A DNA stretch of 47,294 nt from Spongiibacteraceae bacterium (GTDB lineage Bacteria > Pseudomonadota > Gammaproteobacteria > Pseudomonadales > Spongiibacteraceae). Shown one piece after another: positions 9,251 through 46,967 of this stretch (position 1 is the stretch's first letter; the number at the start of each line of letters is the position of its first letter). The translations under genes were made by a program, and so were the position numbers. Under the pieces are notes generated by a model that made no database searches, was not told the DNA's origin, and saw only the letters and a program-made list of their open reading frames with translations. Location: assembly GCA_041591575.1 (NCBI GenBank), contig JBFHRT010000001.1, positions 1-47,294 on the forward strand, given 5' to 3'.

Positions 9251-10816
9251 TCAGTTCACCGCCCGCTTCCGCCCCTCCCAGTAGGGCGCGCGCAGCACGT
9301 GTTTGAGCAGTTTGCCGGAGGCATTGCGCGGCAGCTCGTCGACAAAATCCACGCTTTTGGGCAGCTTGTAGCCGGCGATGCGCGAGCGTGCAAACTCGAT
9401 CAGCGCCGCCTCGCTCAGCTCGGCACCGGAACGCCTCACCACTACCGCCTTCACCGCCTCGCCCCAACGATCGTCGGGTACGCCGATCACCGCCACGTCC
9501 TGCACCGCCTCGTGGCTGTGCAGGACGTTCTCCACCTCCGCCGGATAGATGTTCTCGGCGCCGGAGACGATCAAGTCCTTGATGCGGTCGCAGATGTAGA
9601 GGTAGCCGTCGGCGTCCAGGTAGCCAGCGTCGCCGCTGTGGTACCAGCCGCCGCTGAGCGCGGCGGCGGTGGCCTCGCCTCGCTTCCAGTAGCCGTTCAT
9701 CACCGCATCCGAGCGGATCAGGATCTCGCCCACCTCACCGGCGGGCAGGGGCTCGCCGTCGGCGTCGGCAATGCGGATTTCGCTGCCGACCAGGGCCCTG
9801 CCACAAGAGTTCATGCGGGCATTGCCGCGCACGTCGTGATCCGCCGGTGGCAGCGCGCAGATGGTGCCGGCGGTCTCGGTCATGCCGTAGTGCTGGGAGA
9901 AGCGCGCATTGCCGAACAGCTGCAGCGAGCGCCGCAGCACGTCGCCGGAAATCGGCGAGGCGCCGTAGACGATGAGGCGCATGGCGCCGAGCTCGGCCCG
10001 CTGCGCCGCCTCGTCGTTGACCAGCGCCTGCAGCAGCGCCGGCACGATAAACATCTTGCTGGCGCCGCTCTCCACTGCCTGGACCACAGCGGCCACATCC
10101 GGCGCCGGCAGGATCAGGTTGGTGCTGCCCTGGTAGAAGGCGGTGAAGCCCCACATAGTGCCGCCGATATGAAAGCTGGGCATGGCCACCAGGCTGAGGT
10201 CGTCATCGCGCCACTCCCCCCAGTCCGCGGCCGCGGCGCCGGCCATCTGTGCGAAGAAGGCGCGGTGGCTGATCAGTACCCCCTTGGGCTGGCCGGTGGT
10301 GCCGCTGGTGTACATCTGCATCACCACCTCGTCGCCGCCACGCTCAAGTTGCGAATCGCGGCTGTCCTGGGCGTCGCGCCAGGCCGGATATTCGGCGCCC
10401 TCGCCGTCACAGACGATCACCGCCTCGATACCCGGACAGGCGGCGCGCAGCTGTGTCAGCAGCGGCAGGAAGGCGCTCTCGATAAACAGCGTTTTGACCT
10501 CGCCGTCGTTGAGAATAAAGGCCAGCTCCGCTGCCGCAAGCCGCCAGTTGAGGCCGATCAGCACGGTGCCCGCCTTGGCGCAGCCGAACAGCAGTTCGAA
10601 GAAATAGTCGCTGTTGAGCCCCAGGTAGGCGATGCGCTGCTGCGGCGTTCGGCCCTGCGCGCGGAGGCCGTTGGCGACCCGCGAGGCGTATTCGTCGAGC
10701 GCGCGGTAGCTGCTGCGGCGCCCGGCGAAGATCTGCGCGATAGCCTCGGGTTGATGTCCAGCGTGGAAGCGGACCACGTCGCCCAGACTGCGGGCTTGTT
10801 CAGCGGGCTTGATCAT
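9251..10816 (-). CDS. Acyl-CoA synthetase / AMP-dependent ligase (ANL superfamily)
   Basis: 521 aa. AMP-binding motif YTSGTTGQPKGV, plus GEI...GY and C-terminal GK motifs. GGAGG Shine-Dalgarno upstream of the ATG at 10816. Confidence 0.92.
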   Translation of the reverse strand: MIKPAEQARSLGDVVRFHAGHQPEAIAQIFAGRRSSYRALDEYASRVANGLRAQGRTPQQRIAYLGLNSDYFFELLFGCAKAGTVLIGLNWRLAAAELAFILNDGEVKTLFIESAFLPLLTQLRAACPGIEAVIVCDGEGAEYPAWRDAQDSRDSQLERGGDEVVMQMYTSGTTGQPKGVLISHRAFFAQMAGAAAADWGEWRDDDLSLVAMPSFHIGGTMWGFTAFYQGSTNLILPAPDVAAVVQAVESGASKMFIVPALLQALVNDEAAQRAELGAMRLIVYGASPISGDVLRRSLQLFGNARFSQHYGMTETAGTICALPPADHDVRGNARMNSCGRALVGSEIRIADADGEPLPAGEVGEILIRSDAVMNGYWKRGEATAAALSGGWYHSGDAGYLDADGYLYICDRIKDLIVSGAENIYPAEVENVLHSHEAVQDVAVIGVPDDRWGEAVKAVVVRRSGAELSEAALIEFARSRIAGYKLPKSVDFVDELPRNASGKLLKHVLRAPYWEGRKRAVN

Positions 10817-10846
10817 ACGCTTGCCTCCGAAATGCGTTGGTGCCTG

Positions 10847-11092
10847 CTAGTTGTAATGGCTATAGGGATTGGCCACCTCAATGGGCTTGGATTTGCGCAA
10901 CAGGAAGCCGAGCAGGAAGAACCACAGGCTGCCGCGGATCAGACCGAAGGCCTTGCGCGCCTCGCCGGGAGTGAGGATGCCCTTGACCGGCATGGCACCC
11001 ATGACGGTGCCGGTGAATTCCAGGTTGTTGCCCCTGTGGCTGAGGGCCTTGACCTCCATCAAAACGGAGCCATCGGCGCTGTAGATTTTCAT
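10847..11092 (-). CDS. Small hypothetical protein (81 aa) with a C-terminal hydrophobic helix
   Basis: The ATG at 11092 gives MKIYSADGSVLMEVKALSHRGNNLEFTGTVMGAMPVKG...SLWFFLLGFLL. It fits exactly between the CrtI-like and CoA-ligase genes on the same strand. The upstream part of the 226-aa track ORF overlaps the CrtI-like gene and has shadow-frame composition. Confidence 0.5.
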   Translation of the reverse strand: MKIYSADGSVLMEVKALSHRGNNLEFTGTVMGAMPVKGILTPGEARKAFGLIRGSLWFFLLGFLLRKSKPIEVANPYSHYN

Positions 11093-11163
11093 GCTGACCT
11101 CGCAGTGTGATAATTCGGCGCTTTGGCTGTCGCGCAACAAACAAATGCGTTCACGGGGCCTCC

Positions 11164-12738
11164 TCAGATCTGCATCACTGACTCGATATTCATGCCGAAG
11201 TCGTCCAGCATTTTCATCGCGGTGGCGCGGCCGCCGCCGTTCACCGCACCGCCGGGATGCATAAAGGGGCCGCTGAGGTAGAGGCCGTCGGCGCCGGGCA
11301 CGGCGTAGCGCGCCAGCGCCGGCGTCGGCCGCCGCCCCAGGTACTGGTGCATGAAGGCGCCGATGCCCATGATGTCGCCCTTCTGAAAAGACGCCGACCA
11401 GCGCGCCATATCCGCCGGCGATTCCGCCGCCGAGGCGATGATGTTGTCGTTGGTCATATTGCGGCAGAACTTGCTGTATTCCCCCAGCATCCACTCCTTG
11501 TATTGGTCGCGGACTTCCTCGCTCCAACCGCCGTCACGCTTCAGCTCCAGCGGCGCGAAGCAGTACAGGTAGAGGGTGTGCTTGCCGGCCGGCGCGCGGC
11601 TGGGATCGTGGCGGCTGTGGTGGGCAATGACCGCATTGAAATGTTTGGCCAGGCGGCCGTCGCGCACGTCGTCCAGGGCGCTGCGCAGATGCTCCATACG
11701 TGAGGGCAGGCACTCCACCAGCAGCGAATCGTTCACCTCACGGCAGTGGTAGTCCGGCGCCTCATGCAGGGCCCAGTGGGTATTGAGGGCGCCGAAGCTG
11801 GACAATTCACAGTTCCGGGCGTCGCGCACCAGCTGCTGGTGCAGGCCCTCGACCATATCCCCCAACAGGTGGGGGTGGATGCAGGCCACCACACCCTTTG
11901 TCGCGCTCAGGATTTCACCGCCGGCCAGCTCCACGCCCCTGGCCTCGCCGCCGCTCATCACGATGCGGGTAACCTCGCTGTCGAGGCGAATCTCACCGCC
12001 GTGGTATTCGATGCAGGCCGCCAACGCGTCGCTCAGCGCCTGGCTGCCACCCACCACCGCGGTCTCTTCCTGAGTGTGGGCGACGGCGGTCATGAAGTAC
12101 AGGGCGATGGCGGTGCCGCGCTCGTCGGGGTGGGTCATGCCCTCGCTCATCCACTTCATGAAGTGCATGCGCACTTTTTCGTTCTCAAACAGTTCGTGGC
12201 AGAGCTGGGTGCCGCTCTTGAACATGGTGCCGACGATTTCCTGACCCAGTGGGCTCTGGTCCAGCATCGCCATAAAGGGTCCGAAGGGCAGCGGCGGCTT
12301 GAACATGCTAGCGGTGAACATCGGCCCCATCTCGATGGTGCGGTTCACAAAGGCGCGGTAGGTCTCGGCGTCCCTGGCCGAGAACTTGGCGATGGATTCG
12401 CAGGTCTTGTCCAGGTCGACGTAGGTGCCCATCCAGGTGTTGTCGTCGAAGATGGAGGAATAGGTGATATCGGGGCAGACAAAGCGCAGGCCAAAGCGGG
12501 ACTGCAGCTCCAGCTCGTCGTGGCGGATCATCGGATTGGCCATGACGATGATCATGCCGGTGGCGTGGGTGTCGTGCTTGAAGCCCGGCGCGGTGATCTC
12601 CTTGGATACCACACCGCCACCCACCTGGTCGTTCTTTTCCAGCACACAGACTTTGAGCCCGGCTTTGGCCAGGTAGGCGGCGGCGGTGAGGGAGTTGGAA
12701 CCGGCGCCGACGACGATGATGTCGCAGTGATTGGACAT
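11164..12738 (-). CDS. NAD(P)/FAD-dependent oxidoreductase, phytoene desaturase (CrtI) family
   Basis: 524 aa. N-terminal dinucleotide fold DIIVVGAGSNSLTAAAYLAKAGLKVCVLEKNDQVGGG. Length and C-terminal GGAVNGGGR are typical of CrtI/CrtISO/RetSat-like enzymes. Confidence 0.88.
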   Translation of the reverse strand: MSNHCDIIVVGAGSNSLTAAAYLAKAGLKVCVLEKNDQVGGGVVSKEITAPGFKHDTHATGMIIVMANPMIRHDELELQSRFGLRFVCPDITYSSIFDDNTWMGTYVDLDKTCESIAKFSARDAETYRAFVNRTIEMGPMFTASMFKPPLPFGPFMAMLDQSPLGQEIVGTMFKSGTQLCHELFENEKVRMHFMKWMSEGMTHPDERGTAIALYFMTAVAHTQEETAVVGGSQALSDALAACIEYHGGEIRLDSEVTRIVMSGGEARGVELAGGEILSATKGVVACIHPHLLGDMVEGLHQQLVRDARNCELSSFGALNTHWALHEAPDYHCREVNDSLLVECLPSRMEHLRSALDDVRDGRLAKHFNAVIAHHSRHDPSRAPAGKHTLYLYCFAPLELKRDGGWSEEVRDQYKEWMLGEYSKFCRNMTNDNIIASAAESPADMARWSASFQKGDIMGIGAFMHQYLGRRPTPALARYAVPGADGLYLSGPFMHPGGAVNGGGRATAMKMLDDFGMNIESVMQI

Positions 12739-12758
12739 GGATACCTCGATCTAGACTG

Positions 12759-12856
12759 CCGTCATTGCGAGGAGCCGAAGGCGACGCGGCAATCTCCATC
12801 AGCGTGGCAGTGACCGTCAGGAGATTGCTTCGTCGCTGCGCTCCTCGCAATGACGG
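12759..12856 (+). repeat. REP/MITE-like nested-hairpin element, copy C (near-canonical, 98 bp)
   Basis: CCGTCATTGCGAGGAGC-cgaag-GCGACGCGGCAATCTCC-atcagcGTGGCAGTGACcgtca-GGAGATTGCTTCGTCGC-tgc-GCTCCTCGCAATGACGG. Lies inside a minus-strand operon, between the SDR and CrtI-like genes. Confidence 0.9.
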
Positions 12857-12899
12857 CGCTGATATTCTGTGTCTCGCGTTTCCCGTTTCGCGCCCCGCC

Positions 12900-13661
12900 T
12901 CAATACTGAATCCGCTGGGTAAAGCCGCCGTCCACCACCACGTTGCTGCCGGTGGTGTAGCTGGCGCGCGGGCTGAGCAGGCACAGCGCCTGGAAGGCAA
13001 CCTCCTCTGCGGTGGCCATACGCCCCATGGGGCAGGCGGCCAGGGTGGCCTCGTACACCGGCGGCATGCCCTGCTTGACCTGGTCCCACATGCCGCTCTC
13101 GACAAACACCGGGCCGGGACTGACGGCATTGACGCGGATGCCCTTGGGCGCCAGCTCCATGGCCAGGTTGCCGGCGTAGTTGAGCAGCGCCGCCTTCATC
13201 GCCGCATAGGGGGTGGGGCCGGCGAACTTTTCCACTGCCGCCGAGGTGGCGATCACCAGCACCGCGCCGCAGTCAGATTGTTCCAGGTAGGGCATAGCGG
13301 CATTGATGCCGCGCACGGTGCCCAGCATGTCCAGCTCCAGATTGGCCAGCCAGCCGGCCTCGCTGCTGTCGAAGCCGCCGGCGCTGACATTGGGCACGAA
13401 GCAGTCGATGCCGCCCAGCTCCTCGGCGCAGCGCGCCACCCACTGGGCATAGGCATCGGCGTCGCGCACATCGCAGGCGGCGCCGTATACCGCCACGCCG
13501 TGGCGACTCAGCTCCGCCACCGCCTGCTCAACTTCCGCCGCGTCGCGGGCACAGATGCCCAGCCGACAGCTCTCCTGGGCCAGCAGCTCGGCGATGGCGC
13601 GACCGATGCCCTTGGTGGCGCCGCTGATCACGGCCACTTTGTCTTTCAGTTGCAGATCCAT
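12900..13661 (-). CDS. SDR-family oxidoreductase
   Basis: 253 aa. The TGxxxGIG-type motif appears as VISGATKGIGRAI, and a classical SDR YxxxK region is present (YAAMKAA). Confidence 0.9.
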   Translation of the reverse strand: MDLQLKDKVAVISGATKGIGRAIAELLAQESCRLGICARDAAEVEQAVAELSRHGVAVYGAACDVRDADAYAQWVARCAEELGGIDCFVPNVSAGGFDSSEAGWLANLELDMLGTVRGINAAMPYLEQSDCGAVLVIATSAAVEKFAGPTPYAAMKAALLNYAGNLAMELAPKGIRVNAVSPGPVFVESGMWDQVKQGMPPVYEATLAACPMGRMATAEEVAFQALCLLSPRASYTTGSNVVVDGGFTQRIQY

Positions 13662-13716: not shown

Positions 13717-14487
13717 TCAGGCGGCGGTCTGACCGCCGTCCACCGCCAGGTGGCTGCCGGTGACGCCGCTGGAGCGTTCTGAGGCGTAGTACAGCACCGC
13801 CTCGGCTACTTCGCGCCCCTCTACCAGGCGGCCGATCGGGTGGGTGGCGGCTAGCTCCGCCAGCGCCGCCTCCGGATCGCCGGCGGCGGCCAGCAGCGGC
13901 TCAAGCATGGGCGTGCGCACCACCCCGGGCAGCACCGCGTTGCAGCGGATGGTATAGCCGGCGCCGGCGCAGTGCAGGGCGATGCTGCGGGTCAGGCTCA
14001 GAATCGCCGCCTTGCTGGCGGCGTAGGCGGTGACCCAGGGTGCCGGCTTAAGCGCCGTGGTAGAGGCGACATTAACCAGCGCAGCGCCGTCGGGGTTATC
14101 TTTCATCAGTTCGATGGCGTATTTGCAGCCCAGGAACACGCCACCGGCGTTGGTGCGCAGGGTACTCTGGAAGGTGTCGTAGTCGCAGTTCTCGATATCC
14201 CCGGGCAGCATCACGCCGGCGCAGTTGACCAGTGCGTCAAGCCGCCCCCAGCGCTGGCGAATGGTCGCCATCACCCGCTGCCAATCCGCCTCCTCGGCGA
14301 TGTCCTGGCGCAGAAACTCGGCGCGCTCGCCCAGCTCTCGCTGCAGCGCCGCGCCGCGCTCCTCGCTGCGACCGGACAGCAGCACCACGGCGCCCTCCTC
14401 GGCGAAGCGGCGGGCAATATCGGCGCCGATGCCCGAGGTGGCGCCGGTAATAAGAACGACCTTGTCGGCTAGCACAGCCATGAACAT
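13717..14487 (-). CDS. SDR-family oxidoreductase
   Basis: 256 aa. VLITGATSGIGADIARRF and YAASKAA are present. The start may instead be the ATG at 14481. Confidence 0.9.
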   Translation of the reverse strand: MFMAVLADKVVLITGATSGIGADIARRFAEEGAVVLLSGRSEERGAALQRELGERAEFLRQDIAEEADWQRVMATIRQRWGRLDALVNCAGVMLPGDIENCDYDTFQSTLRTNAGGVFLGCKYAIELMKDNPDGAALVNVASTTALKPAPWVTAYAASKAAILSLTRSIALHCAGAGYTIRCNAVLPGVVRTPMLEPLLAAAGDPEAALAELAATHPIGRLVEGREVAEAVLYYASERSSGVTGSHLAVDGGQTAA

Positions 14488-14546: not shown

Positions 14547-14568
14547 AAAAACAGTCTTACCTGTTTTT
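14547..14568. promoter_or_regulatory. AT-rich inverted-repeat operator candidate, site b
   Basis: AAAAACA-gtcttacc-TGTTTTT, 60 nt upstream of the SDR start at 14487 (minus strand). Confidence 0.6.
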
Positions 14569-14663
14569 AATAGTGCGCAGTGATAATCAGGGGCTGCCAG
14601 TAGGATGGGGTTGCAGCGAGGTCGACAGGAAATGCCGGGGAATGATGCGCTATTCGACAAACT

Positions 14664-14760
14664 CCGTCGTTGCGAGGAGCGCCAGCGACGCGGCAATCTC
14701 CTCAAGTCACTGCCACACTGGAGGGGATTGCCACGTCGCAGGCGGCGGCTCGCAATGACG
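14664..14760 (-). repeat. REP/MITE-like element, copy D1
   Basis: CCGTCGTTGCGAGGAGC..GCGACGCGGCAATCTCC..GTCACTGCCAC..GGGGATTGCCACGTCGC..GGCTCGCAATGACG. The core is in the reverse orientation. Confidence 0.85.
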
Positions 14761-14769
14761 CGACTATCT

Positions 14770-14870
14770 CACCGTTATCGCGAGGAACGCTTGCTAGCGA
14801 CCCAGCAATCTTGCTGAAGCCAGCGCCATCCCGATGGATGGTTGCCGTGTGGCCAGCCCACAACGACAGG
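14770..14870. repeat. REP/MITE-like element, copy D2 (strongly degenerate)
   Basis: CACCGTTATCGCGAGGAACGC..AGCGACCCAGCAATCTTGC...GGATGGTTGCCGTGTGGC..CACAACGACAGG aligns arm-by-arm with the canonical element but carries many substitutions. Confidence 0.5.
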
Positions 14871-14893
14871 GATGCTCCGCTATTCGACAACGC

Positions 14894-14990
14894 CCGTCAT
14901 TGCGAGGAGCGCAAGCGACGCAGCAATATCCTCAAGTCACTGCCACACTGAATGAGATTGCCGCGCCGCCGGTGGCGGCTCGCAATGACG
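14894..14990 (-). repeat. REP/MITE-like element, copy D3
   Basis: CCGTCATTGCGAGGAGC..GCGACGCAGCAATATCC..GTCACTGCCAC..TGAGATTGCCGCGCC..GGCTCGCAATGACG. It is the partner of D1 in a ~230-bp tandem duplication. Confidence 0.85.
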
Positions 14991-15054
14991 CGGGTATGTC
15001 ACCGCCATCGCGAAAAGCGCCGCCCGCCGCGGCGCGTTATGAGGAGAGTGCGCC

Positions 15055-15723
15055 TCAGCCCTTCTTGCTGTTACCGCGATACATGCGGTAACACTCGTCA
15101 GTGAGGTGCTCGACGATGGCGTCAAAGCGGGCGCGCTTGCGCGAGTGCACATAGGAACCCACCAAGCCGCGCAGGGTGAAGTTGACCAGGTCGGAGACCA
15201 GTTGCATCTGCCCTTCCTCCCAGTCCCCCTTGGTCCACAGTGACTCCTGAGCGCTGTAGAACTCCTTCTCGAAACGCTTCTGCATCGGCTCCATCAGCTT
15301 GGCCAGCTCGGCGTCGGTGCGCGCGGCAACAAACAGTTCCTGGTAGGCAGTAAAGCTGGGTTGGTTCAGGTATTTCCAGATGCCGAGGATACCCTCACGA
15401 AAATCCTCGCGGGTCAGTTCCTTGGCCTCGTGGGGCGGCAGGTAGGGAATCGCCTCACGAAACTCCCGCATGCGTTTTTCCTGCACATAGAGCACGGTGG
15501 CGGCAATCACCTCGTTGCGCGACGGGAAGTGGTGCATCATCGCGCCGCGGGACACGCCGGCCTCCTCGCAGATGCGCGGCGTGGTGGTATGACTGTAGCC
15601 ATACTGAATCAGGCAGCGGATGGCCGCTTCCAGAATGGCGGTGCGGGTCATCTGGCTCTTTTCCGCCTGCCATGAGCCCTCGCGGGTGCCGGCCTTGCGC
15701 CGGCGGGCGACTGGATTATTCAT
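15055..15723 (-). CDS. TetR/AcrR-family transcriptional regulator
   Basis: 222 aa. The N-terminal HTH reads TRTAILEAAIRCLIQYGYSHTTTPRICEEAGVSRGAMMHHFPSRNEVI. Confidence 0.92.
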   Translation of the reverse strand: MNNPVARRRKAGTREGSWQAEKSQMTRTAILEAAIRCLIQYGYSHTTTPRICEEAGVSRGAMMHHFPSRNEVIAATVLYVQEKRMREFREAIPYLPPHEAKELTREDFREGILGIWKYLNQPSFTAYQELFVAARTDAELAKLMEPMQKRFEKEFYSAQESLWTKGDWEEGQMQLVSDLVNFTLRGLVGSYVHSRKRARFDAIVEHLTDECYRMYRGNSKKG

Positions 15724-15757
15724 GCGCTGTGGCTACCTTTCCGTCGTGGACGCGCCC

Positions 15758-15763
15758 ATTATA
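15758..15763 (-). promoter_or_regulatory. Candidate -10 hexamer (TATAAT) of a TetR-gene promoter
   Basis: The minus strand reads ..cattttcc-TGGCAAGTGCTGCCACG-TATAAT-gggcg, about 35 nt upstream of the ATG at 15723. The -35 is weak (TTTTCC at a 17-nt spacing). Confidence 0.35.
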
Positions 15764-15799
15764 CGTGGCAGCACTTGCCAGGAAAATGCTGCTGACTGT

Positions 15800-15822
15800 A
15801 AAAACCAGCGCTGCCTGTTTTG
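15800..15822. promoter_or_regulatory. Degenerate copy of the AT-rich inverted repeat (N9 spacer), upstream of the TetR gene
   Basis: AAAAACC-agcgctgcc-TGTTTTG, 77 nt upstream of the TetR start. One mismatch per half-site and a 9-nt spacer. Confidence 0.35.
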
Positions 15823-15869
15823 TTTCTTGACGCTGTGCACGGCGACGCTGGTCACTGCCGGGCGATACC

Positions 15870-30737: not shown

Positions 30738-30738
30738 A

Positions 30739-35908: not shown

Positions 35909-35931
35909 CGCTTCTTGAATGACAACGATCG

Positions 35932-38932: not shown

Positions 38933-38965
38933 AGTGCTCGCTCGTTGTGTGTTCAGTTAAATTCC

Positions 38966-39066: not shown

Positions 39067-39091
39067 ACGATTGGGTTGCGCGCCGCCGTGA

Positions 39092-40621
39092 TCAGGCCAG
39101 CAGCGTCGCTGGCCGCTCGATAAAGCCCTTTAGCGCCTGTAAAAACTGCGCCGCGGTGGCGCCGTCGATGACCCGGTGGTCGCTGGACAGATTCAGCGTC
39201 ATCGCCAGCCCCACTTCCAGTTCGCCACTGGCGCCCACCACCGGCCGGCGCTCGGCACCGCCCACGGCAAGGATGGCGGCCTGGGGCGGGTTGATGATGG
39301 CGTCGAAGTGCTTGACGCCGTACATGCCCAGATTCGAGATACAGAAGCTGCCGCCCTGGAATTCGCTCGCCTGCAGCCGGCCCAGCTTGGCGCGAGTGGC
39401 GAGGTCGCGCACCTCGTTGGAGATCTGCACCACACCCTTGCTGTTAGCCGAGCGCACGACCGGCGTGATCAGACCATCTTCCAGCGCCACCGCCACCGCG
39501 ATATCGGCATCGGCAAAGCGCGTGATGGCCTCGCCGTCAAACTGGATGTTCAGCGCCGGCACTGCCTGCAGCACCGCGGCACTGGCCTTGATCAGCAGGT
39601 CGTTGACCGAAATCCTGGCATCGCTGCGCGCGGCATTGAGCTGTTCGCGCGCAGCCTGCAGCGCCTCCAGCCGCACGTCCACCGCCACCCGAAAATGGGG
39701 CGCGAGCTGCTTGGACTGCTGCAGGCGCGCGGCGATGGTTTTGCGCATGCCGTTCAGCGGTTGCGTCTGTACTGGCGTGTTAGCTTGCTGCGAAGCCGGC
39801 TCGACGGCCGCCTGCACCGAGGCATTTGCAGGTTTGTCCGCGTCATTGCGCAGCGCGGCCGCGGCTTCGACATCGGCCTTGGCGACGCGACCGTTGCGAC
39901 CGCTGGCGCGACAGTCGTTGAGATTGATGCCCAGCTCGGCGGCCAGGCGCCGCGCCACCGGGGTGGCCTTGATATGGCTGTCATCGGCGCCGCTGGGGCG
40001 CGGCGCTTGCCGCGCGTGCTGCGGCAGCGCCAGCTCTCCACCGGCGGCGGCCACCGCCTGCTTGAGGTCGGCGAGGGTGACGCGGCCACCGCGACCGCTT
40101 GCGGCGGCGTGGTTAAGCACCGCGTTGAGGTTGATGCCCTCGCGCGCCGCCAGCCGCCGCGCCACCGGGGTGGCTGGCACGGCGCTGTCGTCGCCACCCT
40201 CGCCAAGGCCGTTGACGGCTACCCCCCTGGGCGCGGCATCGCCATTGCTGTGACTGCCGCCGGCCGACAGTTCGTCCACCGCCGCGCCATTAGGCTCGTC
40301 TGCGGCCTGTTCGCCGGCGTCGCAACCAAAGGCCGCAATGAAGGCGTCGATATCGGCCTCGGCGGTGTCCGCCTCGGCCACCACCCCCAGCAGCGCTCCC
40401 ACCGCCAGGGTCTCGCCGGGCTGTGCGAGGATGCGGCGCAGGGTGCCGGCGCGGTCGGCGGTGAGGGTGTTGACGATTTTGCTGGTCTCGATGTCCACCA
40501 GCTCGGCGCCGGGCGCGATGGCCTCGCCCTCGGCCAGGTGCCAGCTATTGATGACGCCCTCACTCATTTCCATGCCCCACTTGGGCATGGCGATGGGGTA
40601 AATGCTTGCGGCCATGATCAA
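39092..40621 (-). CDS. Dihydrolipoamide acyltransferase (E2) with one lipoyl domain and two peripheral-subunit-binding domains
   Basis: 509 aa. Lipoyl-Lys context VDIETSKIV. Two PSBD copies: ATPVARRLAAREGINLN (about 40052-40177) and ATPVARRLAAELGINLN (about 39860-39970). Catalytic motif DHRVIDGA. Confidence 0.92.
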   Translation of the reverse strand: MIMAASIYPIAMPKWGMEMSEGVINSWHLAEGEAIAPGAELVDIETSKIVNTLTADRAGTLRRILAQPGETLAVGALLGVVAEADTAEADIDAFIAAFGCDAGEQAADEPNGAAVDELSAGGSHSNGDAAPRGVAVNGLGEGGDDSAVPATPVARRLAAREGINLNAVLNHAAASGRGGRVTLADLKQAVAAAGGELALPQHARQAPRPSGADDSHIKATPVARRLAAELGINLNDCRASGRNGRVAKADVEAAAALRNDADKPANASVQAAVEPASQQANTPVQTQPLNGMRKTIAARLQQSKQLAPHFRVAVDVRLEALQAAREQLNAARSDARISVNDLLIKASAAVLQAVPALNIQFDGEAITRFADADIAVAVALEDGLITPVVRSANSKGVVQISNEVRDLATRAKLGRLQASEFQGGSFCISNLGMYGVKHFDAIINPPQAAILAVGGAERRPVVGASGELEVGLAMTLNLSSDHRVIDGATAAQFLQALKGFIERPATLLA

Positions 40622-41625
40622 CCCTCCAGCGCGGCTCTGACGCCTGCTTCGATGCGCTCCACCGACGGCACGTACAGGTCTTCCAGCAACGGCGCGAAGG
40701 GCACCGGCGTGTGCGGCGCAGTGACCTTGACCACCGGTGCGCGCAGCGAGTGGAAACCCTTGGCGGCGACCATGCTGGCGATGTCAGCGGCGAGGCTGCA
40801 GCGCTCGTTGGCCTCGTCGACAATCACCAGGCGACCGGTGATCTCCACGCTCTCCAGAATCGCCTCCTCGTCCAGCGGTGAGACGCTGCGCGGATCGATG
40901 ACATCGCAGCCGATGCCCTCCTCCGCCAGCTTGTCGGCCACCGCGTTGGCCCGCGGCACCATGGACGACAGCGCGACGATGGTGACGTCGCCGCCGTGGC
41001 GGGTGAAGGCGGCCTCGCCAAAGGGAATGCAGTAGTCCTCGTCCGGCACCTCACAGGCGGCGTCGTAGAGGGTCTTGTGCTCCAGGAAGATGACCGGGTC
41101 ATTGTCGCGAATGGCGGTGGCGAGCAAGCCCTTGGCGTCATAGGCGTTGGAGGGCATCACCACCTTTAGCCCCGGCACCATGGTGACCATGGGGTGCAGC
41201 ATCTGCGAGTGCTGGGCGCCGCCGCGGAAACCGGCACCGACCATGGCGCGGATCACCAGCGGGGTTTCCGACTTGCCGCCAAACATATAACGAAACTTGG
41301 CGGCCTGGTTGTAGATCTGGTCGAAGCAGACGCCGATGAAGTCGAAGAACATCAGGTCCACCACCGGGCGCAGGCCGGTGCAGGCGGCACCGGCGGCGGC
41401 GCCGACAAAAGACGACTCGCTGATGGGTGTGTCGATCACCCGCTCGCGGCCAAATTCGCTCACCAGCCCCTTGGTAACCCCGAACACGCCGCCATAGGCA
41501 TCGTCGCTGCCGTCGCAGCCGGCACCACCGGCCACGTCCTCACCGATAACAATGACACGAGAATCGCGCCGCATCTCCTGGCGCAGGGTGTCGTTGATCG
41601 CTTCGCGAATAGTTTTCGTCGCCAT
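40618..41625 (-). CDS. 2-oxoacid/acetoin dehydrogenase E1 component, beta subunit
   Basis: 335 aa. Transketolase-like Pyr and C-terminal domains (VIVIGEDVA..GG.F..T.GL...FG..RV.DTPI.E). Overlaps the E2 start by 4 nt. Confidence 0.93.
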   Translation of the reverse strand: MATKTIREAINDTLRQEMRRDSRVIVIGEDVAGGAGCDGSDDAYGGVFGVTKGLVSEFGRERVIDTPISESSFVGAAAGAACTGLRPVVDLMFFDFIGVCFDQIYNQAAKFRYMFGGKSETPLVIRAMVGAGFRGGAQHSQMLHPMVTMVPGLKVVMPSNAYDAKGLLATAIRDNDPVIFLEHKTLYDAACEVPDEDYCIPFGEAAFTRHGGDVTIVALSSMVPRANAVADKLAEEGIGCDVIDPRSVSPLDEEAILESVEITGRLVIVDEANERCSLAADIASMVAAKGFHSLRAPVVKVTAPHTPVPFAPLLEDLYVPSVERIEAGVRAALEG

Positions 41626-41634
41626 GGGGATTCC

Positions 41635-42618
41635 TCAGTATTGCGCGTACACGTCCAGGGTGAGCTGATCGGCGCTGGGGCCGGGGGCACCCAGCGCCTC
41701 TTCCACCGCCTCGTCGATGAGCAGCGAGACCTCGCGGTCGACCGCTTCCAGCTGCGCGGCCTTGAGCCAGCCCTCGGCCTGCACACGCTCGCTGAAAATC
41801 TTCAGGCAGTCGCGCTCGGCGCGCAGCCGCGCCAGCTCACCATCGCCGCGGTAGAGCTGCGGATCGCCAACGAAGTGGCCGTTGAAGCGCACCACCTGCG
41901 CCTCGATGGCATAGGGCCCCCTGCCGCTCTTGCAGTGCTCCACCGCCTGTTGCGCGGCCTCGTACACCGCGAAAAAATCGGAGCCGTCCACCTTCACCGC
42001 CGGCATGCCGAAGGCCTCGGCGCGCTTGGCGATGTCGCCGCTACCGACGGCATAGGCGGCGCCAGTGCCCTCGGCGTAGCCGTTGTTCTCGAACACAAAG
42101 ATCGCCGGCACCTGCAGCACCACCGCCAGGTTCATGGACTCGAACACCGTGCCCTGGTTGGAGCCGCCATCGCCGGTGAAGGCCAGCCCGACGCTGGGCT
42201 TGCCCAGGGTCTTGGCCGACAGCGCCGCACCCACGCACAGCGGCGGCGCACCGCCGACGATGGCATTGGCGCCGAGCATACCTTTGTCGATGTCGGCGAT
42301 GTGCATGGAGCCGCCCTTGCCTTTGCACAGCCCCGTCGCCCTGGCCATGATCTCCTTCATCATGCCCTTCACGTCACAGCCCTTGGCAATGCAGTGACCG
42401 TGGCCGCGATGGGTGCTGCCGATGTAGTCGTCGTCGCTCAGGTGCATGCATACGCCGGTGGCGACCGCCTCCTGGCCGTCGTAGACATGAACAAATCCGG
42501 GGATATTGCCGGCCTGAAATTCCGCGATGACCCGCTCTTCAAAGGCGCGGATGGTTTTCATCGTGCGGTAGGCACTGAGCAGTGTGTCTTCGGGTAGGGC
42601 CATGTTGTCTCCCGCCAA
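41635..42618 (-). CDS. Thiamine-diphosphate-dependent dehydrogenase E1 component, alpha subunit (AcoA/PdhA-like)
   Basis: 327 aa. TPP-binding region GDGGSNQG...N.A......PAIFVFENNGYA, and the N-terminal M..IR.FEE pattern. Confidence 0.93.
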   Translation of the reverse strand: MAGDNMALPEDTLLSAYRTMKTIRAFEERVIAEFQAGNIPGFVHVYDGQEAVATGVCMHLSDDDYIGSTHRGHGHCIAKGCDVKGMMKEIMARATGLCKGKGGSMHIADIDKGMLGANAIVGGAPPLCVGAALSAKTLGKPSVGLAFTGDGGSNQGTVFESMNLAVVLQVPAIFVFENNGYAEGTGAAYAVGSGDIAKRAEAFGMPAVKVDGSDFFAVYEAAQQAVEHCKSGRGPYAIEAQVVRFNGHFVGDPQLYRGDGELARLRAERDCLKIFSERVQAEGWLKAAQLEAVDREVSLLIDEAVEEALGAPGPSADQLTLDVYAQY

Positions 42619-42670: not shown

Positions 42671-42692
42671 TAAAACAAGCACGATTGTTTTT
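42671..42692. promoter_or_regulatory. AT-rich inverted-repeat operator candidate, site e
   Basis: TAAAACA-agcacgat-TGTTTTT, 53 nt upstream of the E1-alpha start (42618, minus strand). Confidence 0.6.
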
Positions 42693-42713: not shown

Positions 42714-42815
42714 CCAGTCATTGCGAGCCTCCGATGGCGGCGCGGCAATCGCCAGCAGGCAAGGTGCCAGTCCAAGGAGATCGCCACGGCGTGACATGCG
42801 CGCCTCGCGATGACG
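42714..42815 (+). repeat. REP/MITE-like element, copy L1
   Basis: CCAGTCATTGCGAGCC..GGCGCGGCAATCGCC..AAGGTGCCAGTCC..GGAGATCGCCACGGCG..GCGCCTCGCGATGACG. Confidence 0.75.
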
Positions 42816-42827
42816 TCGGAATAAACC

Positions 42828-42978
42828 CGCGTCATTGCGAGGAGCCGCAGTCGACGCGGCAACCCCATTCCGCGTGGCAGTGGCCTGATGGCGATCACCG
42901 CGTCGTGCGGGGCGCCTACAGAAATTTTCTTCTGCAATTTCTGCACTTCCGCCATCCCTGGCGGTCGTCGCGATGACG
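42828..42978 (+). repeat. REP/MITE-like element, copy L2 (about 45-nt AT-richer insertion in the right arm)
   Basis: CGCGTCATTGCGAGGAGC..TCGACGCGGCAACCCC..GCGTGGCAGTGGCC..GGCGATCACCGCGTCG..[ctacagaaattttcttctgcaatttctgcacttcc]..GGTCGTCGCGATGACG. Confidence 0.75.
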
Positions 42979-42993: not shown

Positions 42994-44418
42994 TCAGAAA
43001 TTCAGGGCCTTCAACTCCAGAAACTCGTCCAGCCCCGCCCGCCCCAGCTCGCGGCCATTGCCGGACTGCTTGTAACCGCCAAAGGGCGCGGCGAAGTTGA
43101 ACTGACCGCCGTTGATGGCCACCTGCCCGGTGCGCAGTTGCAGCGCCACTTTTTTCGCGCGCTCGCTATCCGCCGACCACACACCGCCGGAGAGACCGTA
43201 GTCGCTGTCATTGGCCTCGGCGATGGCCTGCTCCTCGCTGTCGTAGGGGAGGATGGCCAGTACCGGGCCGAAGATCTCCTCGCGGGCGATGAGCATGTCG
43301 TTGCGCACATCACTGAAGATCGTGGGCTGCACGTAGGCGCCCCGCTCCAGCCCCGGCGGCGGCTCTACGCCGCCGCAGACCAGGGTGGCCCCCTCGTCGA
43401 TGCCGAGCTGGATATAACCGAGTACGGTGTTTTTCTGTGCCTGAGATACCAGCGGCCCCATAAAGGTATTGGGGCTGCGCGGGTCGCCCACCACCACCGC
43501 GGCGGCGGTCTCGCGGGCGATGGCCACTGCCTGCGCCTGCTGCTCGCGCGGCACGAACACGCGGCTGAGGGCGGCACAGGTCTGGCCGCTGTTGGCCATC
43601 ATCGCCATCACCGCCGCCGGCACTGCCTGCGCCAGCGGGCAGTCGTCCAGCAGAATTAGCGCCGACTTGCCACCCAACTCCTGGGACACGCGCTTGATGG
43701 TGGGCGCCGCCAGCTCGGCTATGCGCGCGCCGGAGGCGGTGGAGCCGGTGATGGATACCATGTCGACTTGCGGGTGGGCCGCCAACACCTCGCCCACGCT
43801 GCGCCCGGCACCGCTGACCAGGTTGAACACCCCGGCGGGCAGTTCGGCGGCCTCGGCCAGCTCGGCGAACAGGAAGGCGTTGAGCGGGGTCTCAGAACTG
43901 GGCTTGAGCACCGCGGTGCAACCGGCGATCAGCGCCGGCGCCAGCTTGACGGCAATCTGGTGCAGCGGATAGTTCCAGGGGGTGATGAAACTACACACCC
44001 CCACCGGCTCGCGGTGAATCTCCGAGTTGCCCACCGTTTCCGACTCCTCAGCGGCATAGGCGCGGCCCACCTCAACGTAACTGGCCAGATCGCCCAGTCC
44101 CAGCCCCACCTGCACCTCGCTGGCAAAGCCGGCGGGCGCGCCCAGCTCCAGGCGGATCACCTCGGCAAATTCGGCGGCGCGCTCACCCATCAGCGCCAGC
44201 AGCTTTTCCACATAGGCCAGGCGCTCGCTCACCGGCCGCGCCGCCCAGGCGGGAAAGGCCTCCCGCGCCGCCAGTATCGCGCGCTCGGCGTCCTGAGCAC
44301 TGCCTGCCGGCACCTTGCCGATGTTCTCGCCGTCGGCGGGATTGATCACGTCGATGGCGCCAGTGGTTTGCAGCACCTGCCACTGGCCTCCGATATAGAA
44401 CTTGTCATAGATACGCAT
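42994..44418 (-). CDS. NAD(P)-dependent aldehyde dehydrogenase
   Basis: 474 aa. The ALDH motifs are present as ITGSTASG, QELGGKSA and SGQTCAALSR. Confidence 0.92.
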   Translation of the reverse strand: MRIYDKFYIGGQWQVLQTTGAIDVINPADGENIGKVPAGSAQDAERAILAAREAFPAWAARPVSERLAYVEKLLALMGERAAEFAEVIRLELGAPAGFASEVQVGLGLGDLASYVEVGRAYAAEESETVGNSEIHREPVGVCSFITPWNYPLHQIAVKLAPALIAGCTAVLKPSSETPLNAFLFAELAEAAELPAGVFNLVSGAGRSVGEVLAAHPQVDMVSITGSTASGARIAELAAPTIKRVSQELGGKSALILLDDCPLAQAVPAAVMAMMANSGQTCAALSRVFVPREQQAQAVAIARETAAAVVVGDPRSPNTFMGPLVSQAQKNTVLGYIQLGIDEGATLVCGGVEPPPGLERGAYVQPTIFSDVRNDMLIAREEIFGPVLAILPYDSEEQAIAEANDSDYGLSGGVWSADSERAKKVALQLRTGQVAINGGQFNFAAPFGGYKQSGNGRELGRAGLDEFLELKALNF

Positions 44419-44429: not shown

Positions 44430-45524
44430 TCAGTGTGTGAGGCTGTTGTAGCGCTGGAGGTGTTCATCACTGGAGCCGAACAGCTGGCTCAGCACGGTGA
44501 GGCGCTTGAAGTAGTGGCCGACGCTGAGCTCGTCGGTCATGGCGATACCACCGTGCAGTTGTATCGCCGACTGGCCGACGAAGCGCGCGGCGTCGTCGAC
44601 CTTAACCTTGAGGGCTGCGATATAGCGACGCGCATCGGCCGCCCCAGACTGCAGCTTGGCGGCGCAGACCGGCAACAACGAGCGCGCCGACTCGCAGGCC
44701 AGATACATGTCCACCATACGGTGCTGCAACACCTGAAAGCGGCCAATGGGGCTCCCGAACTGCCGGCGCTCCTTGCAGTAATCCACCGTTGCCGTCAGCA
44801 ACGCGTCCATGGCACCCACGGCCTCGGCGCACACCACCAGCAGCGCCTCGTCCAGCACCACTGCCAGCACGCCTTCTGCCTCGGCCTCGCTCAGCAGGGC
44901 ATCGCGCCCCAGGTGCACATCGTCGAGCGCGATGTCGGCAGCGCTGCGGCCGTCGATGGTGGGGTATTCGCGGCGGCCGAGCCCGGGGCTGTCGGCGGGT
45001 ACGGCAAAAAGCGCAACCGCGGAATGCAGGCGTGCGCTGACAACCAGCAACTGCGCCGCCGGTGCGTTGTACACCACCGCCTTACTGCCGTTGAGCCGAT
45101 AGCCCTCCCCCTCGGGCTCGGCGCGAGTCTCGAGTCCCGCTGCCTCAAAGTGCGCCAGTGCCGCCTGCAACTCGCCGGCCATCAGCGGCGCCAGCCAGCG
45201 CCGACGCTGTTCGGCCGAGGCGGCGCGGCGCAGCGCGCCGCCGGCGAGCACGATGTTTTCCAGGTAGGGCTCGACCACCAGATGGCGACCGAAGGCCTCG
45301 AACAGCCCCGCCAGCTCCACCGCGCCACCGCCGAAGCCGCCGTCGGCCTCGGCAAAGGGCAGGCCCAGCCAGCCCAGCTCCGCGAAGTCGCGCCAGCACT
45401 CGGCGCTGAAGGGCGCCGCGTCGGCGACGTTGGCGCGGCGCTGCTCGAAGCTGTAGTGATCGCCTAGGTACCTGCCGATGCTGTCGTTGAGCAGCTGCTG
45501 CTCTTCGTTACTGTCAAAACTCAT
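44430..45524 (-). CDS. Acyl-CoA dehydrogenase family protein (364 aa; probable non-catalytic partner subunit)
   Basis: ATG at 45524 (AAGGAAACA upstream). ACAD N-, middle- and C-domain pattern, ..QLHGGIAMTDE. The position of the usual YEG catalytic Glu reads LFGSS. Confidence 0.85.
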   Translation of the reverse strand: MSFDSNEEQQLLNDSIGRYLGDHYSFEQRRANVADAAPFSAECWRDFAELGWLGLPFAEADGGFGGGAVELAGLFEAFGRHLVVEPYLENIVLAGGALRRAASAEQRRRWLAPLMAGELQAALAHFEAAGLETRAEPEGEGYRLNGSKAVVYNAPAAQLLVVSARLHSAVALFAVPADSPGLGRREYPTIDGRSAADIALDDVHLGRDALLSEAEAEGVLAVVLDEALLVVCAEAVGAMDALLTATVDYCKERRQFGSPIGRFQVLQHRMVDMYLACESARSLLPVCAAKLQSGAADARRYIAALKVKVDDAARFVGQSAIQLHGGIAMTDELSVGHYFKRLTVLSQLFGSSDEHLQRYNSLTH

Positions 45525-45579
45525 GGCTGTTTCCTTTGTCATTCAGAACACGGCTCACGCTATAGACCAGCGCCAACTT

Positions 45580-45680
45580 CTCGTCATCGCGAGGAGCGTT
45601 TTCAGCGACTTGGCGATCTCCCAGAGACACTGCCAACTTGGCGGAGATTGCCGCCTCGCTTTCGGCTCGTCGCAATGACG
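45580..45680 (-). repeat. REP/MITE-like element, copy M
   Basis: CTCGTCATCGCGAGGAGC..GCGACTTGGCGATCTCC..ACACTGCCAAC..GGAGATTGCCGCCTCGC..GGCTCGTCGCAATGACG. Lies between the two ACAD genes. Confidence 0.85.
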
Positions 45681-45761
45681 CGCCCTTGCTGATAAAAAAG
45701 GCCCCGCTGGAAGGGGCCAAGCGGGAGGTACTCCGTTGCCCGCGCCACAGCCGAGGTCCGC

Positions 45762-46967
45762 TTACAGCCCCAGCACCAGCTTGGCGATGATATTGCGCTG
45801 TACCTGGGCAGTGCCGCCGTAGATGGTGGAGGCGCGGTTGTTGAGATAGGCATTGGTCAATGCGATGCCGCTCTCCGGGCCGATGGGCTCGCCGACAAAG
45901 TCCGGCGCCAGCGCGGCGTTCTGCAGCGGCGCGCAGTAGCGGCCGCGCAATTCGATGCCCAGCTCATCCAGTTGCTGACCCAGCTCGGTGCCGATCAGCT
46001 TGGTCAGCGAGGACAGCGCGCCGGGGTTCTGCCCCGCCGCAGCCTGCGACTTGATGCGCTGTTCCATGGCCTGCAGCGCCAGGGCGTCGATCTCCAGCCG
46101 ACCCAGCCGCGCCGCGAACAACGGCTCATCGAGATAGCAACTACCGCCGGGCGAGGTGTACTCGGCGGCCAGCTTGCGCAGCCTGGCCAGCTGCTGGTTG
46201 ATGGGCACAAAGTAACTGAGGCCACCGCGCTCGAACTCCAGCAGGTACTTGGCCACCTCCCAGCCCTGGTTCTCGGTGCCAACCAGATTGGCCCGCGGCA
46301 CGCGCACATCGTCGAAAAATACCTCGCACTGCTCCACTTCGCCGTCGATGCCGACGATGGGCGACACGGTGATGCCCGGGGCATCCAGGTCGATGAGCAG
46401 GAAGCTGATGCCCGCCTGGGGCCGGGCCCCGGGATCGGTGCGCACCAGGCAGAAGATCTTGTTGGCGCGGTGGGCATAGCTGGTCCAGATCTTGGCGCCG
46501 TTGACGACATAGTCGTCGCCGTCGGCCACCGCCCGGGTCTGCAGCGAGGCCAGGTCGGAGCCGGCATTGGGTTCGGAATAGCCCTGGCACCACACGTCCT
46601 CGCCGGAGCGGATGCGCGGCAGCAGTTCCGCCTTCTGCTGCTCGCCGCCATAGCGGATCAGCATCGGCCCCAGCATCGCCAGCCCCATCGGCAGCAGTGC
46701 CGGCGCGCCGGCCATGCGGCACTCCTCCAGGAAAATATCGCGCTGATTTAGGGTCCAGCCGATGCCGCCGTACTCCTCGGGCCAGTCCGGGGTGATCCAG
46801 TTGTGCTCATAGAGAATTCGGTGCCAGGCCATCGCCGCATCGAAATCGGCGAAGATGCTGGTCATGCGCTGCCCTGCCCGGCGCAGAGTCGGGGTCAGGT
46901 GGGTGTCGAGAAACTGCCTGACGGTCTTGCGGAAGACATGGTCGGCATCGCCGGCGGATAGGTCCAT
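45762..46967 (-). CDS. Acyl-CoA dehydrogenase family protein (401 aa)
   Basis: ACAD pattern: W..PDWPEEYGG.GW, the CQGYSEPNAGSDLASL motif, and the C-terminal IYGGTAQVQRNIIA. Confidence 0.9.
   Translation of the reverse strand: MDLSAGDADHVFRKTVRQFLDTHLTPTLRRAGQRMTSIFADFDAAMAWHRILYEHNWITPDWPEEYGGIGWTLNQRDIFLEECRMAGAPALLPMGLAMLGPMLIRYGGEQQKAELLPRIRSGEDVWCQGYSEPNAGSDLASLQTRAVADGDDYVVNGAKIWTSYAHRANKIFCLVRTDPGARPQAGISFLLIDLDAPGITVSPIVGIDGEVEQCEVFFDDVRVPRANLVGTENQGWEVAKYLLEFERGGLSYFVPINQQLARLRKLAAEYTSPGGSCYLDEPLFAARLGRLEIDALALQAMEQRIKSQAAAGQNPGALSSLTKLIGTELGQQLDELGIELRGRYCAPLQNAALAPDFVGEPIGPESGIALTNAYLNNRASTIYGGTAQVQRNIIAKLVLGL

Follow-up and report, generated by a model that had tools for sequence, protein, structure and literature searches.

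A putative TetR-repressed catabolic regulon around a carotenoid-cleavage-oxygenase-family enzyme in a Spongiibacteraceae bacterium, with related clusters in marine Cellvibrionales

The stretch of DNA analyzed here, referred to as the window, comprises positions 1 to 47,294 of contig JBFHRT010000001.1 from a Spongiibacteraceae bacterium (assembly GCA_041591575.1) and carries catabolic operons that share a short palindromic operator with a tetR gene. We infer from the sequence that these operons form a single TetR-repressed regulon of about 41 kb, with eight transcription units and approximately 30 genes, whose co-expression and control by TetR are predicted. The best explanation overall, a tentative one that falls a little short of an even chance, is that this regulon degrades a polyene- or apocarotenoid-like lipid, with a carotenoid-cleavage oxygenase (CCO) among its central enzymes. 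Genes in the window (GC content of approximately 64%) were called by GC3 guidance, and families were assigned using Pfam and NCBIfam profile searches. Nearly all the families that an earlier note on this DNA had listed between 9251 and 46967 were borne out in this way; that note had counted four SDRs, of which three were found (12900-13661, 13717-14487 and 28593-29396) and no fourth, and its list also lacked the low-GC TPR gene and four further genes, which encode a glutathione S-transferase (GST), ThuA-like and SnoaL_4 proteins, and the di-haem c-type lipoprotein at 27051-28553.

The operator is the palindrome AAACA-N8-TGTTT. With up to one mismatch allowed, it occurs as 10 overlapping matches at 8 sites in intergenic DNA, against 0.30 expected; none of 100 shuffles reached 10 matches, and the shared operator that had been proposed earlier is real by this measure. 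Its extended consensus is taaAAACA-N8-TGTTTtta. The sites are located at 8950-8967 (AATCAATATTGTTTGTTT, before the di-haem lipoprotein gene 6214-8955), 14549-14566, 15803-15820 (before tetR), 18357-18374 (upstream of the gene for a TonB-dependent receptor, TBDR), 18507-18524 (upstream of an operon encoding an aldehyde dehydrogenase (ALDH), the CCO and a reductase), 23806-23823 (between the divergent ThuA and cytochrome P450 genes), 42673-42690 (upstream of the E1alpha gene) and 47032-47049 (upstream of a unit of two acyl-CoA dehydrogenase (ACAD) genes and an ALDH gene). Every transcription unit between 6.2 and 47.05 kb has an operator in front of it. The operator centers lie approximately 40-90 bp upstream of the first genes of the units, tetR included, the exception being the site at 18507, which is 14 bp from the first ATG of the ALDH open reading frame (ORF). 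For gene 6214-8955, a 913-aa ORF, this spacing is measured from Met26 at 8880, which is probably the true start. Since this gene at the left limit has an operator of its own and the last operator is found at 47032-47049, the regulon is wider than the 9251-46967 interval in which it was initially recognized.

The repressor gene (15055-15723, minus strand) encodes a protein with a TetR_N domain and is probably autoregulated, its own operator being centered 88 bp upstream. The window holds both elements by which a TetR-family regulon is recognized, namely a TetR_N repressor gene and a palindrome repeated before the units and before tetR itself; for the repressor, neither the PDB nor NCBIfam offered an informative characterized relative. 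As an architecture, catabolic operons with a TBDR under one TetR protein are of a known kind. In KstR/KstR2- or PsrA-type regulons, one TetR protein and a short palindromic operator likewise stand before many catabolic units, and these units also include acyl-CoA ligase, heteromeric ACAD and thiolase-like/DUF35 genes; however, the window differs from them in the operator itself, in its CCO-centered content and in having no steroid-ring genes.

Evidence that these genes belong together also comes from other genomes. A homologue scan that took one genome per species returned 76 loci, against which all window proteins were run using tblastn, a match being counted where it lay no more than 10 kb from the CCO gene; the short length of many contigs makes the resulting neighbor counts lower bounds. 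About 70 of the 76 loci encode CCO orthologues (57-67% identity), nearly all of them in Halieaceae (Halioglobus, Haliea, Seongchinamella), Microbulbifer, Biformimicrobium, Porticoccus and related Cellvibrionales, and a protein search added CCO homologues of Sinobacterium and Oceanicoccus. The neighbors found most often are the DUF35 gene (at least 55 of 76 loci), the thiolase-like gene (at least 53), the SnoaL gene (at least 51), a Rieske gene (at least 48), the enone reductase gene (at least 42) and the ABM gene (at least 39), followed by the E1alpha and E1beta genes (at least 32 and at least 31, respectively), the TetR gene (at least 31), the LLM gene (at least 27), the E2 gene (at least 26), the GabD-like ALDH gene (at least 25) and the PimD-like ACAD gene (at least 20). 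The usual order in related loci is ACAD, TetR, ALDH, LLM, molybdopterin oxidoreductase, ABM, enone reductase and SnoaL; behind the CCO gene follow E1alpha, E1beta, E2 and, in some loci, E3, then DUF35, thiolase, Rieske, SDR, ligase and SDR. The SnoaL gene is divergent from the CCO gene in most related genomes. In 65 of 78 loci, the CCO gene has an exact copy of the operator 60-110 bp upstream of it.

The more peripheral genes of the window recur in similar company. In Microbulbifer and Biformimicrobium, a second CCO paralogue is found approximately 17-22 kb away within the same supercluster, where it adjoins genes for a TBDR and a di-haem lipoprotein and is close to P450 and Rieske genes, which indicates that uptake and tailoring genes also travel with the system. 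An independent contig carries a homologue (73%) of the window's CrtI-like protein. Encoded near it are E1alpha/E1beta/E2, with an exact operator 50 bp upstream of E1alpha, together with an ALDH, a ligase, a TetR protein, an enone reductase, a Rieske protein, an SDR and two ACADs. No similar cluster was found around NACOX1 on plasmid pNL2 or around a 37% homologue on a Martelella plasmid, so the cluster appears specific to the Cellvibrionales CCO clade. Treating the window genes as one system, as the earlier note had done, is well supported, both by the operator statistics and by the recurrence of these families and this operator across dozens of Cellvibrionales genomes.

One challenge to this grouping is that several independent lipid or xenobiotic modules might be controlled by one TetR-family global repressor, with the CCO in a peripheral role. 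The window modules are indeed scattered and interrupted by approximately 15 REP-like elements and the low-GC TPR gene; in most genomes, the CCO gene does not have the TBDR, P450, CrtI-like or second Rieske genes as direct neighbors, and a molybdopterin oxidoreductase gene conserved elsewhere is missing from the window. We consider this arrangement decidedly unlikely, because a contiguous core, defined as CCO, SnoaL, thiolase-like, DUF35, Rieske, E1E2, ABM, LLM, enone reductase, GabD-like ALDH, ACAD and TetR genes, occurs with the same operator in approximately 50 genomes, and because the CrtI-like/ligase module recurs with E1E2, ACADs, Rieske and enone reductase genes under that operator.

In 42 related clusters, the LLM and ABM genes are separated by the gene for this molybdopterin oxidoreductase (for example at 4354-6522 of locus L023), whose product of 722 aa shows 76-94% identity among the closest relatives listed; in the window, the LLM and ABM genes are adjacent. 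A few Halioglobus clusters also carry, between the enone reductase and SnoaL genes, a gene for a beta-lactamase-fold serine hydrolase, a possible esterase (8146-9336 of the same locus), which the window does not have.

The CCO itself (20294-21727, plus strand; the database gene model begins at 20318) matches PF03055 with 387 bits, against a gathering threshold of 27, over profile positions 2-468 of 469, and therefore has a full-length domain. It was aligned with eight Cellvibrionales orthologues or paralogues, with ACO and NACOX1, and with LsdA, LSD4 and NOV1-type sequences recovered from PDB alignments. The equivalents of His167, His218, His282, His472 and Glu135 (LsdA numbering) are kept in the window protein, as they are in the eight relatives. 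Its best solved relative is Synechocystis ACO (2biw, 213 bits), ahead of LsdA (168) and NOV1 (160), and its identity is 35% to ACO, 33% to NACOX1 and 28-30% to LsdA/LSD4/NOV1. The best NCBIfam model is that of the 8'-apo-carotenoid 13,14-dioxygenase (NF052295, NACOX1), with 282 bits against a cut-off of 675, while the lignostilbene dioxygenase (LSD) equivalog NF053778 gives 241.6 against 800; falling below both cut-offs, the protein is a member of neither equivalog. By sequence, it is an intact four-histidine enzyme of the RPE65/CCO superfamily, of a non-stilbene, ACO-like kind, for which cleavage of a C=C bond is predicted, and it appears to form its own clade in a comparison that covered ACO, NACOX1, LsdA, LSD4 and NOV1-type proteins. 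For this reason, its similarity to ACO is a lead on specificity and no proof of it.

A stilbene-cleaving role can be judged from the active site. In the SYK-6 LSDs, the residues Phe59, Tyr101 and Lys134 hold and activate the 4-hydroxyphenyl group of the substrate and are conserved (PMC8191317). At these positions, the window CCO and its closest orthologues have Leu, Val and Trp, and ACO has Phe, Val and Trp; across the eight aligned relatives, the first position is Leu, Val or Ile, the second Val, His or Leu, and the third Trp or Phe, and none of the eight keeps Phe59, Tyr101 or Lys134. The candidate assignment of the CCO as a lignostilbene dioxygenase was rejected on this basis, and the comparison with stilbene oxygenases that had been suggested earlier as a check finds no clustering with the strict stilbene enzymes. 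LsdA, LSD4 and NOV1 are bacterial catabolic enzymes of the same superfamily with the same metal site; in contrast to them, the window CCO lacks the triad and scores 242 against 800 bits with the LSD model. ACO and NACOX1 share with it the full-length fold, the four histidines and the conserved second-shell glutamate, and ACO also has Trp at the position of the LSD lysine and Val at that of the LSD tyrosine. Unlike the window CCO, which sits inside a conserved regulon, these two are encoded by stand-alone genes, the pNL2 neighborhood of NACOX1 holding no catabolic cluster.

These results bear directly on the possibility that the cluster breaks down stilbenoids or aromatics derived from lignin, in which case the CCO would be a lignostilbene or isoeugenol oxygenase. 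LSDs do belong to the CCO family and their model reaches 242 bits on the window protein, and a GST is present; GSTs act as beta-etherases in sphingomonad lignin pathways. Nonetheless, the replaced triad, the closer identity to ACO, the lack of vanillin, protocatechuate and ring-cleavage genes in the cluster, and a host clade of marine Cellvibrionales make this explanation extremely unlikely. The earlier proposal of a carotenoid or apocarotenoid substrate is better placed, in that the CCO scores best against apocarotenoid oxygenases and lacks the stilbene triad, but the protein remains far below the named equivalogs.

The operon in which the CCO gene lies gives further indications of the cleavage products. 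Its gene order is ALDH (18530-20068), CCO (20294) and an NADPH-dependent enone (C=C) reductase of CurA/PTGR1 type (21762-22766), all on the plus strand. The ALDH passes the succinate-semialdehyde dehydrogenase (SSADH) subfamily model TIGR01780 (688.8 against 646.35 bits), reaches 718.6 with the stricter SSADH equivalog NF008415, under its cut-off of 828, and over 477 aa shares 60% identity with E. coli GabD (3jz4); orthologues with 57-63% identity occur in 22 related loci. On these sequence grounds, it is a GabD-type succinate-semialdehyde dehydrogenase and not of the retinal or apocarotenal type. Two ALDHs had been assigned earlier to the processing of the cleavage aldehydes; both are present, but the one in the CCO operon is GabD-type. 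The reductase has ADH_N_2 and ADH_zinc_N domains and scores 347 bits against a cut-off of 440 with the CurA model NF058644. The order gabD-like, CCO, curA-like suggests cleavage near a carboxyl end, giving a 4-oxo-2-enoate.

The remaining steps of carbon-chain processing also depart from a simple scheme. The two ACADs (44430-45542, PimD small-subunit-like, and 45762-46967, PimC large-subunit-like, both on the minus strand) are most similar to the PimC/PimD pimeloyl-CoA dehydrogenase, with scores below the cut-offs (330 bits for TIGR03203 and 339 bits for TIGR03204, respectively). The SCP2-thiolase-like protein (35932-37083, minus strand) has BbsB (7pxp) as its best PDB match, with 165 bits, followed by SCP2-thiolase (148) and the steroid aldolase Ltp2 (6ok1, 92), and its neighbor (37076-37537, minus strand) encodes a DUF35 partner with an OB-fold and a zinc ribbon. 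BbsAB, the benzoylsuccinyl-CoA thiolase, and the Ltp2-ChsH2(DUF35) aldolase have the same combination of an SCP2-thiolase fold and a DUF35 zinc-ribbon/OB partner. In the window protein, the Cys nucleophile is kept, whereas HDCF is changed to QDTE and GHP to GEP; both catalytic His residues are replaced in all 50 sequences compared (the window protein and 49 orthologues), the replacement being invariant in the clade. With both His residues replaced, the active site matches neither a canonical thiolase nor BbsB; 35932-37083 therefore falls outside the canonical SCP2-type thiolases, and the chemistry of the thiolase-like/DUF35 pair is likely non-canonical, as judged from these residues. Together, the GabD-type ALDH, the PimCD-like ACADs and the His-less thiolase-like protein point, at the level of sequence, to dicarboxylate or semialdehyde intermediates that the earlier scheme did not predict. 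That scheme had envisaged beta-oxidation-like shortening, for which the two ACADs and the thiolase/DUF35 pair are present, but no hydratase was found and the thiolase lacks its His residues.

A keto-acid-dehydrogenase-like complex is encoded at 37550-42618 on the minus strand and includes E1alpha (41635-42618), E1beta (40618-41625), a lipoyl-bearing acyltransferase E2 (39092-40621) and the dihydrolipoamide dehydrogenase E3 (37550-38932), the E1 being dependent on thiamine pyrophosphate (TPP). Its best models are of the pyruvate dehydrogenase (PDH) type: E1alpha scores 323 bits against a cut-off of 394, E1beta 343 against 321 (NF006667, passed) and E2 392 against 445, while the AcoC model gives 112 bits against a cut-off of 307. 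The Aco-type label given earlier is a family-level statement, E1alpha, E1beta, E2 and E3 all being present. Acetoin and pyruvate dehydrogenase complexes have the same four components, and E1beta passes the PDH cut-off; in contrast, E1alpha and E2 of the window are below theirs. In relatives, the E1/E2 genes lie between the CCO and thiolase-like genes, which implies a dedicated keto substrate.

This set of enzymes also recalls the degradation of the side chain or acyclic part of a steroid, hopanoid or other cyclic terpenoid, since it combines the acyl-CoA ligase, the TetR protein and the TBDR with a heteromeric ACAD pair and an SCPx-like thiolase that has a DUF35 partner, and the best solved relatives of the P450 are CYP125 and CYP142. 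Such a role is very unlikely, given that genes for KstD, a KshA-type Rieske protein, HsaA-D, IpdAB or meta-cleavage are absent from the window, that no role of CCOs in steroid catabolism is known, and that the thiolase-like protein is nearer to BbsB and SCP2-thiolase than to Ltp2. In the Pfam search, no extradiol or intradiol dioxygenase, KstD, KshA-type or HsaABCD domain was found in any window gene; the earlier judgment that a steroid pathway is less likely stands, the window having neither steroid-ring nor aromatic ring-cleavage genes.

From the observed parts list, operator and synteny, the following chemistry can be proposed. The TBDR would take up a lipophilic conjugated compound, the likeliest candidates being a polyene- or apocarotenoid-like isoprenoid and a polyenoic acid that derives from such a compound, and the two periplasmic di-haem lipoproteins may act on the substrate at this uptake stage. 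The P450, the Rieske oxygenases, the SDRs, the alcohol dehydrogenase and the CrtI-like flavoenzyme would tailor it by redox chemistry, and the CCO would then cut it at a double bond. Cleavage beside a carboxyl end would free a 4-oxo-2-enoate, which the CurA-type reductase could saturate to (methyl)succinate semialdehyde and the GabD-type enzyme could oxidize to (methyl)succinate. The acyl-CoA ligase would activate the remaining fragment and the PimCD-like ACAD pair would desaturate it, after which the His-less thiolase-like/DUF35 pair may shorten it, possibly by a retro-aldol or retro-Claisen reaction at hindered methyl-branched carbons. The PDH/Aco-like E1E2E3 complex could convert keto or alpha-hydroxy-keto fragments into acyl-CoA. 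The substrate or an acyl-CoA intermediate would release TetR from its operators, inducing all units. For the substrate of this pathway, a polyene or apocarotenoid is the best-fitting candidate, a circumstantial one to which we give not quite even credence.

Several points weigh against the polyene or apocarotenoid pathway. The literature searched contains nothing on this cluster or on bacterial carotenoid catabolism. The CCO shares just 35% identity with ACO and scores far under every named equivalog cut-off. The GabD-type ALDH and the PimCD-like ACADs suit short dicarboxylates, which are derivable from many non-isoprenoids. The CrtI-like, TBDR and P450 genes are away from the CCO gene in most related genomes, and the molybdopterin oxidoreductase is absent from the window. 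Finally, no enoyl-CoA hydratase, ferredoxin, reductase or alpha-methylacyl-CoA racemase was found in the window; with no hydratase, ferredoxin or reductase, the proposed beta-oxidation-like shortening is incomplete as written.

In another reading, the architecture and regulation are the same but the substrate is a non-carotenoid conjugated alkene, such as an unbranched polyenoic acid, an aryl polyene, an algal lipid of the oxylipin or polyunsaturated-aldehyde type, or another alkenyl natural product, from which the CCO would free true succinate semialdehyde. The identity of the CCO-operon ALDH to E. coli GabD and its passing of the SSADH subfamily cut-off suggest unbranched succinate semialdehyde over a methyl-branched analogue; PimCD-like ACADs are best known for straight-chain dicarboxyl-CoA, the PTGR1/CurA family of the enone reductase acts on alkenals and enones, and the CCO stands in its own clade outside the characterized equivalogs. 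However, the substrates of characterized CCO-family enzymes are carotenoids, apocarotenoids or aryl-conjugated alkenes, and we know of none that acts on fatty-acid-type polyenes. Moreover, the CrtI/CrtO-like protein, the CYP125-like P450 and the thiolase-like/DUF35 pair better suit branched or bulky isoprenoids. On balance, a non-carotenoid alkene is an unlikely substrate.

If the polyene or apocarotenoid reading is taken to its full extent, the regulon would be the first complete bacterial pathway for the uptake and mineralization of carotenoid-derived polyenes, for instance algal xanthophylls or apocarotenoid products, a prospect that we regard as doubtful. Carotenoids are abundant marine lipids, and to our knowledge no bacterial pathway for their catabolism has been described; a conserved catabolic cluster around a non-stilbene CCO is likewise undescribed in the literature searched. 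Such a pathway would be conserved in Halieaceae, Microbulbiferaceae, Porticoccaceae and Spongiibacteraceae, and its unusual parts would include a new CCO clade, a cleave-reduce-oxidize operon giving (methyl)succinate, a His-less thiolase-fold/DUF35 C-C lyase, a dedicated TPP/lipoyl complex and possibly F420-dependent reductases, which are rare in Gammaproteobacteria. The cluster occurs in common coastal heterotrophs, of which Halioglobus japonicus, Seongchinamella unica, Microbulbifer elongatus and M. agarilyticus are in culture, so that the question is directly testable. Whatever the substrate, the His-less thiolase-fold protein, the two di-haem lipoproteins and the PDH-like complex are variants without a characterized counterpart, and the repressor/operator pair can be used for finding the inducer.

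Among the tailoring enzymes, the FAD oxidoreductase (11164-12738, minus strand) had been assigned to the CrtI family. It does belong to the CrtI superfamily, matching CrtI (4dgk) over its full length with an E-value of 4e-7, but it is a distant CrtI/CrtO relative: its best NCBIfam model, the CrtO ketolase, gives 208 bits against a cut-off of 1000, and crtI_fam gives 98 against 238. The unit to which it belongs begins with the SDR gene 13717-14487, continues with the SDR gene 12900-13661 and, after the FAD oxidoreductase, ends with the acyl-CoA ligase gene (9251-10816), all on the minus strand. The ligase has an AMP-binding domain (270 bits) and passes the long-chain-fatty-acid-CoA ligase subfamily model NF004837 (556 against 476). 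The TBDR (15870-18278, minus strand) has plug and beta-barrel domains and a signal peptide. On the plus strand, the P450 (23885-25138), whose nearest solved relatives are CYP125, CYP142 and CYP107, is followed by the GST (approximately 25272-25964, start chosen), a Zn-dependent alcohol dehydrogenase (25968-26984), a di-haem c-type cytochrome lipoprotein (27051-28553), the third SDR (28593-29396) and a Rieske oxygenase alpha subunit (29396-30571, start chosen); the ThuA-like gene (22985-23773, minus strand) is divergent from this operon. The cluster-conserved Rieske oxygenase alpha subunit, present in 48 related loci, is encoded at 34353-35756, next to the SnoaL_4/NTF2-like protein (33872-34333), the ABM-domain protein (33531-33875) and the LLM-class oxidoreductase (32487-33482), all on the minus strand. 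The second ALDH (42994-44418, minus strand), which accompanies the ACAD pair, is generic and BADH/Rv0768-like.

Both di-haem lipoproteins carry two CxxCH motifs and a lipobox, which is LLTAC in the protein encoded by 6214-8955 (minus strand). The latter weakly matches the di-haem cytochrome c peroxidase model NF040606. Both are only distant CCP/MauG relatives; the AF2 model of the protein encoded by 27051-28553 (pLDDT 88) finds only di-haem peroxidases and MauG in Foldseek, at TMq values of 0.24-0.27; a sequence search of the PDB with the di-haem lipoproteins found nothing. A RoxA-type rubber oxygenase role was considered for these proteins and rejected, because PF21419 gives 13.8 bits against 26.7 and the fold is weakly MauG/peroxidase-like; some homologues also give sub-threshold PF21419 matches. 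Relatives of the di-haem lipoproteins adjoin the TBDR and the second CCO in Microbulbifer (15085-17643 of the M. elongatus locus L068), and homologues of the 500-aa protein (27051-28553), which carry no annotation, are common in Polyangiaceae and Myxococcales.

The LLM-class oxidoreductase passes TIGR03621 (271 against 213 bits), a family annotated as F420-dependent, and has orthologues with 74-78% identity in 27 loci. Use of F420 would be unusual in Gammaproteobacteria. In M. elongatus, the fno, cofE, cofD and cofC genes lie directly beside the CCO cluster (17889-21152 of the same locus). Small PNPOx/FDOR-like proteins, encoded at 230-616 in the window, are 77-88% conserved in 26 related clusters.

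Upstream of the regulon, the region 1507-5644 (plus strand) encodes a 772-aa lipoprotein, a 124-aa secreted protein and a 501-aa membrane protein with no Pfam family; this trio comes after PNPOx-like, SnoaL-like and Mpo1-like genes and before a gene for a pterin-4a-carbinolamine dehydratase. No tRNA genes or Rfam families were found in the window, and simple promoter and terminator scans gave background levels only.

The window also contains approximately 15 copies, some in tandem, of a REP/MITE-like nested-palindromic element of approximately 95-105 nt, which fill most gaps between operons and also occur at several places within operons. The element has CGTCATTGCGAGGAGC...GCTCCTCGCAATGACG as inverted termini and GCGACGCGGCAATCTCC...GGAGATTGCCGCGTCGC as inner arms; the terminus has 28 matches against 0.9 expected, and the element has no Rfam match. 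Examples are located at 12758-12862, 14639-14790, 14869-15020, 20131-20215, 22772-22871, 22897-22970, 25147-25248, 30618-30737, 32388-32469, 35779-35910, 38964-39069, 42714-42978 and 45582-45682. The segment 30593-32487 stands out by its low GC content (57% against 64%) and carries a gene for a secreted TPR/DUF4034 protein (30799-32250, minus strand). It is flanked by 81-nt direct repeats (30656-30736 and 32388-32468) that are 79% identical, has no operator and looks like an insertion into the regulon.

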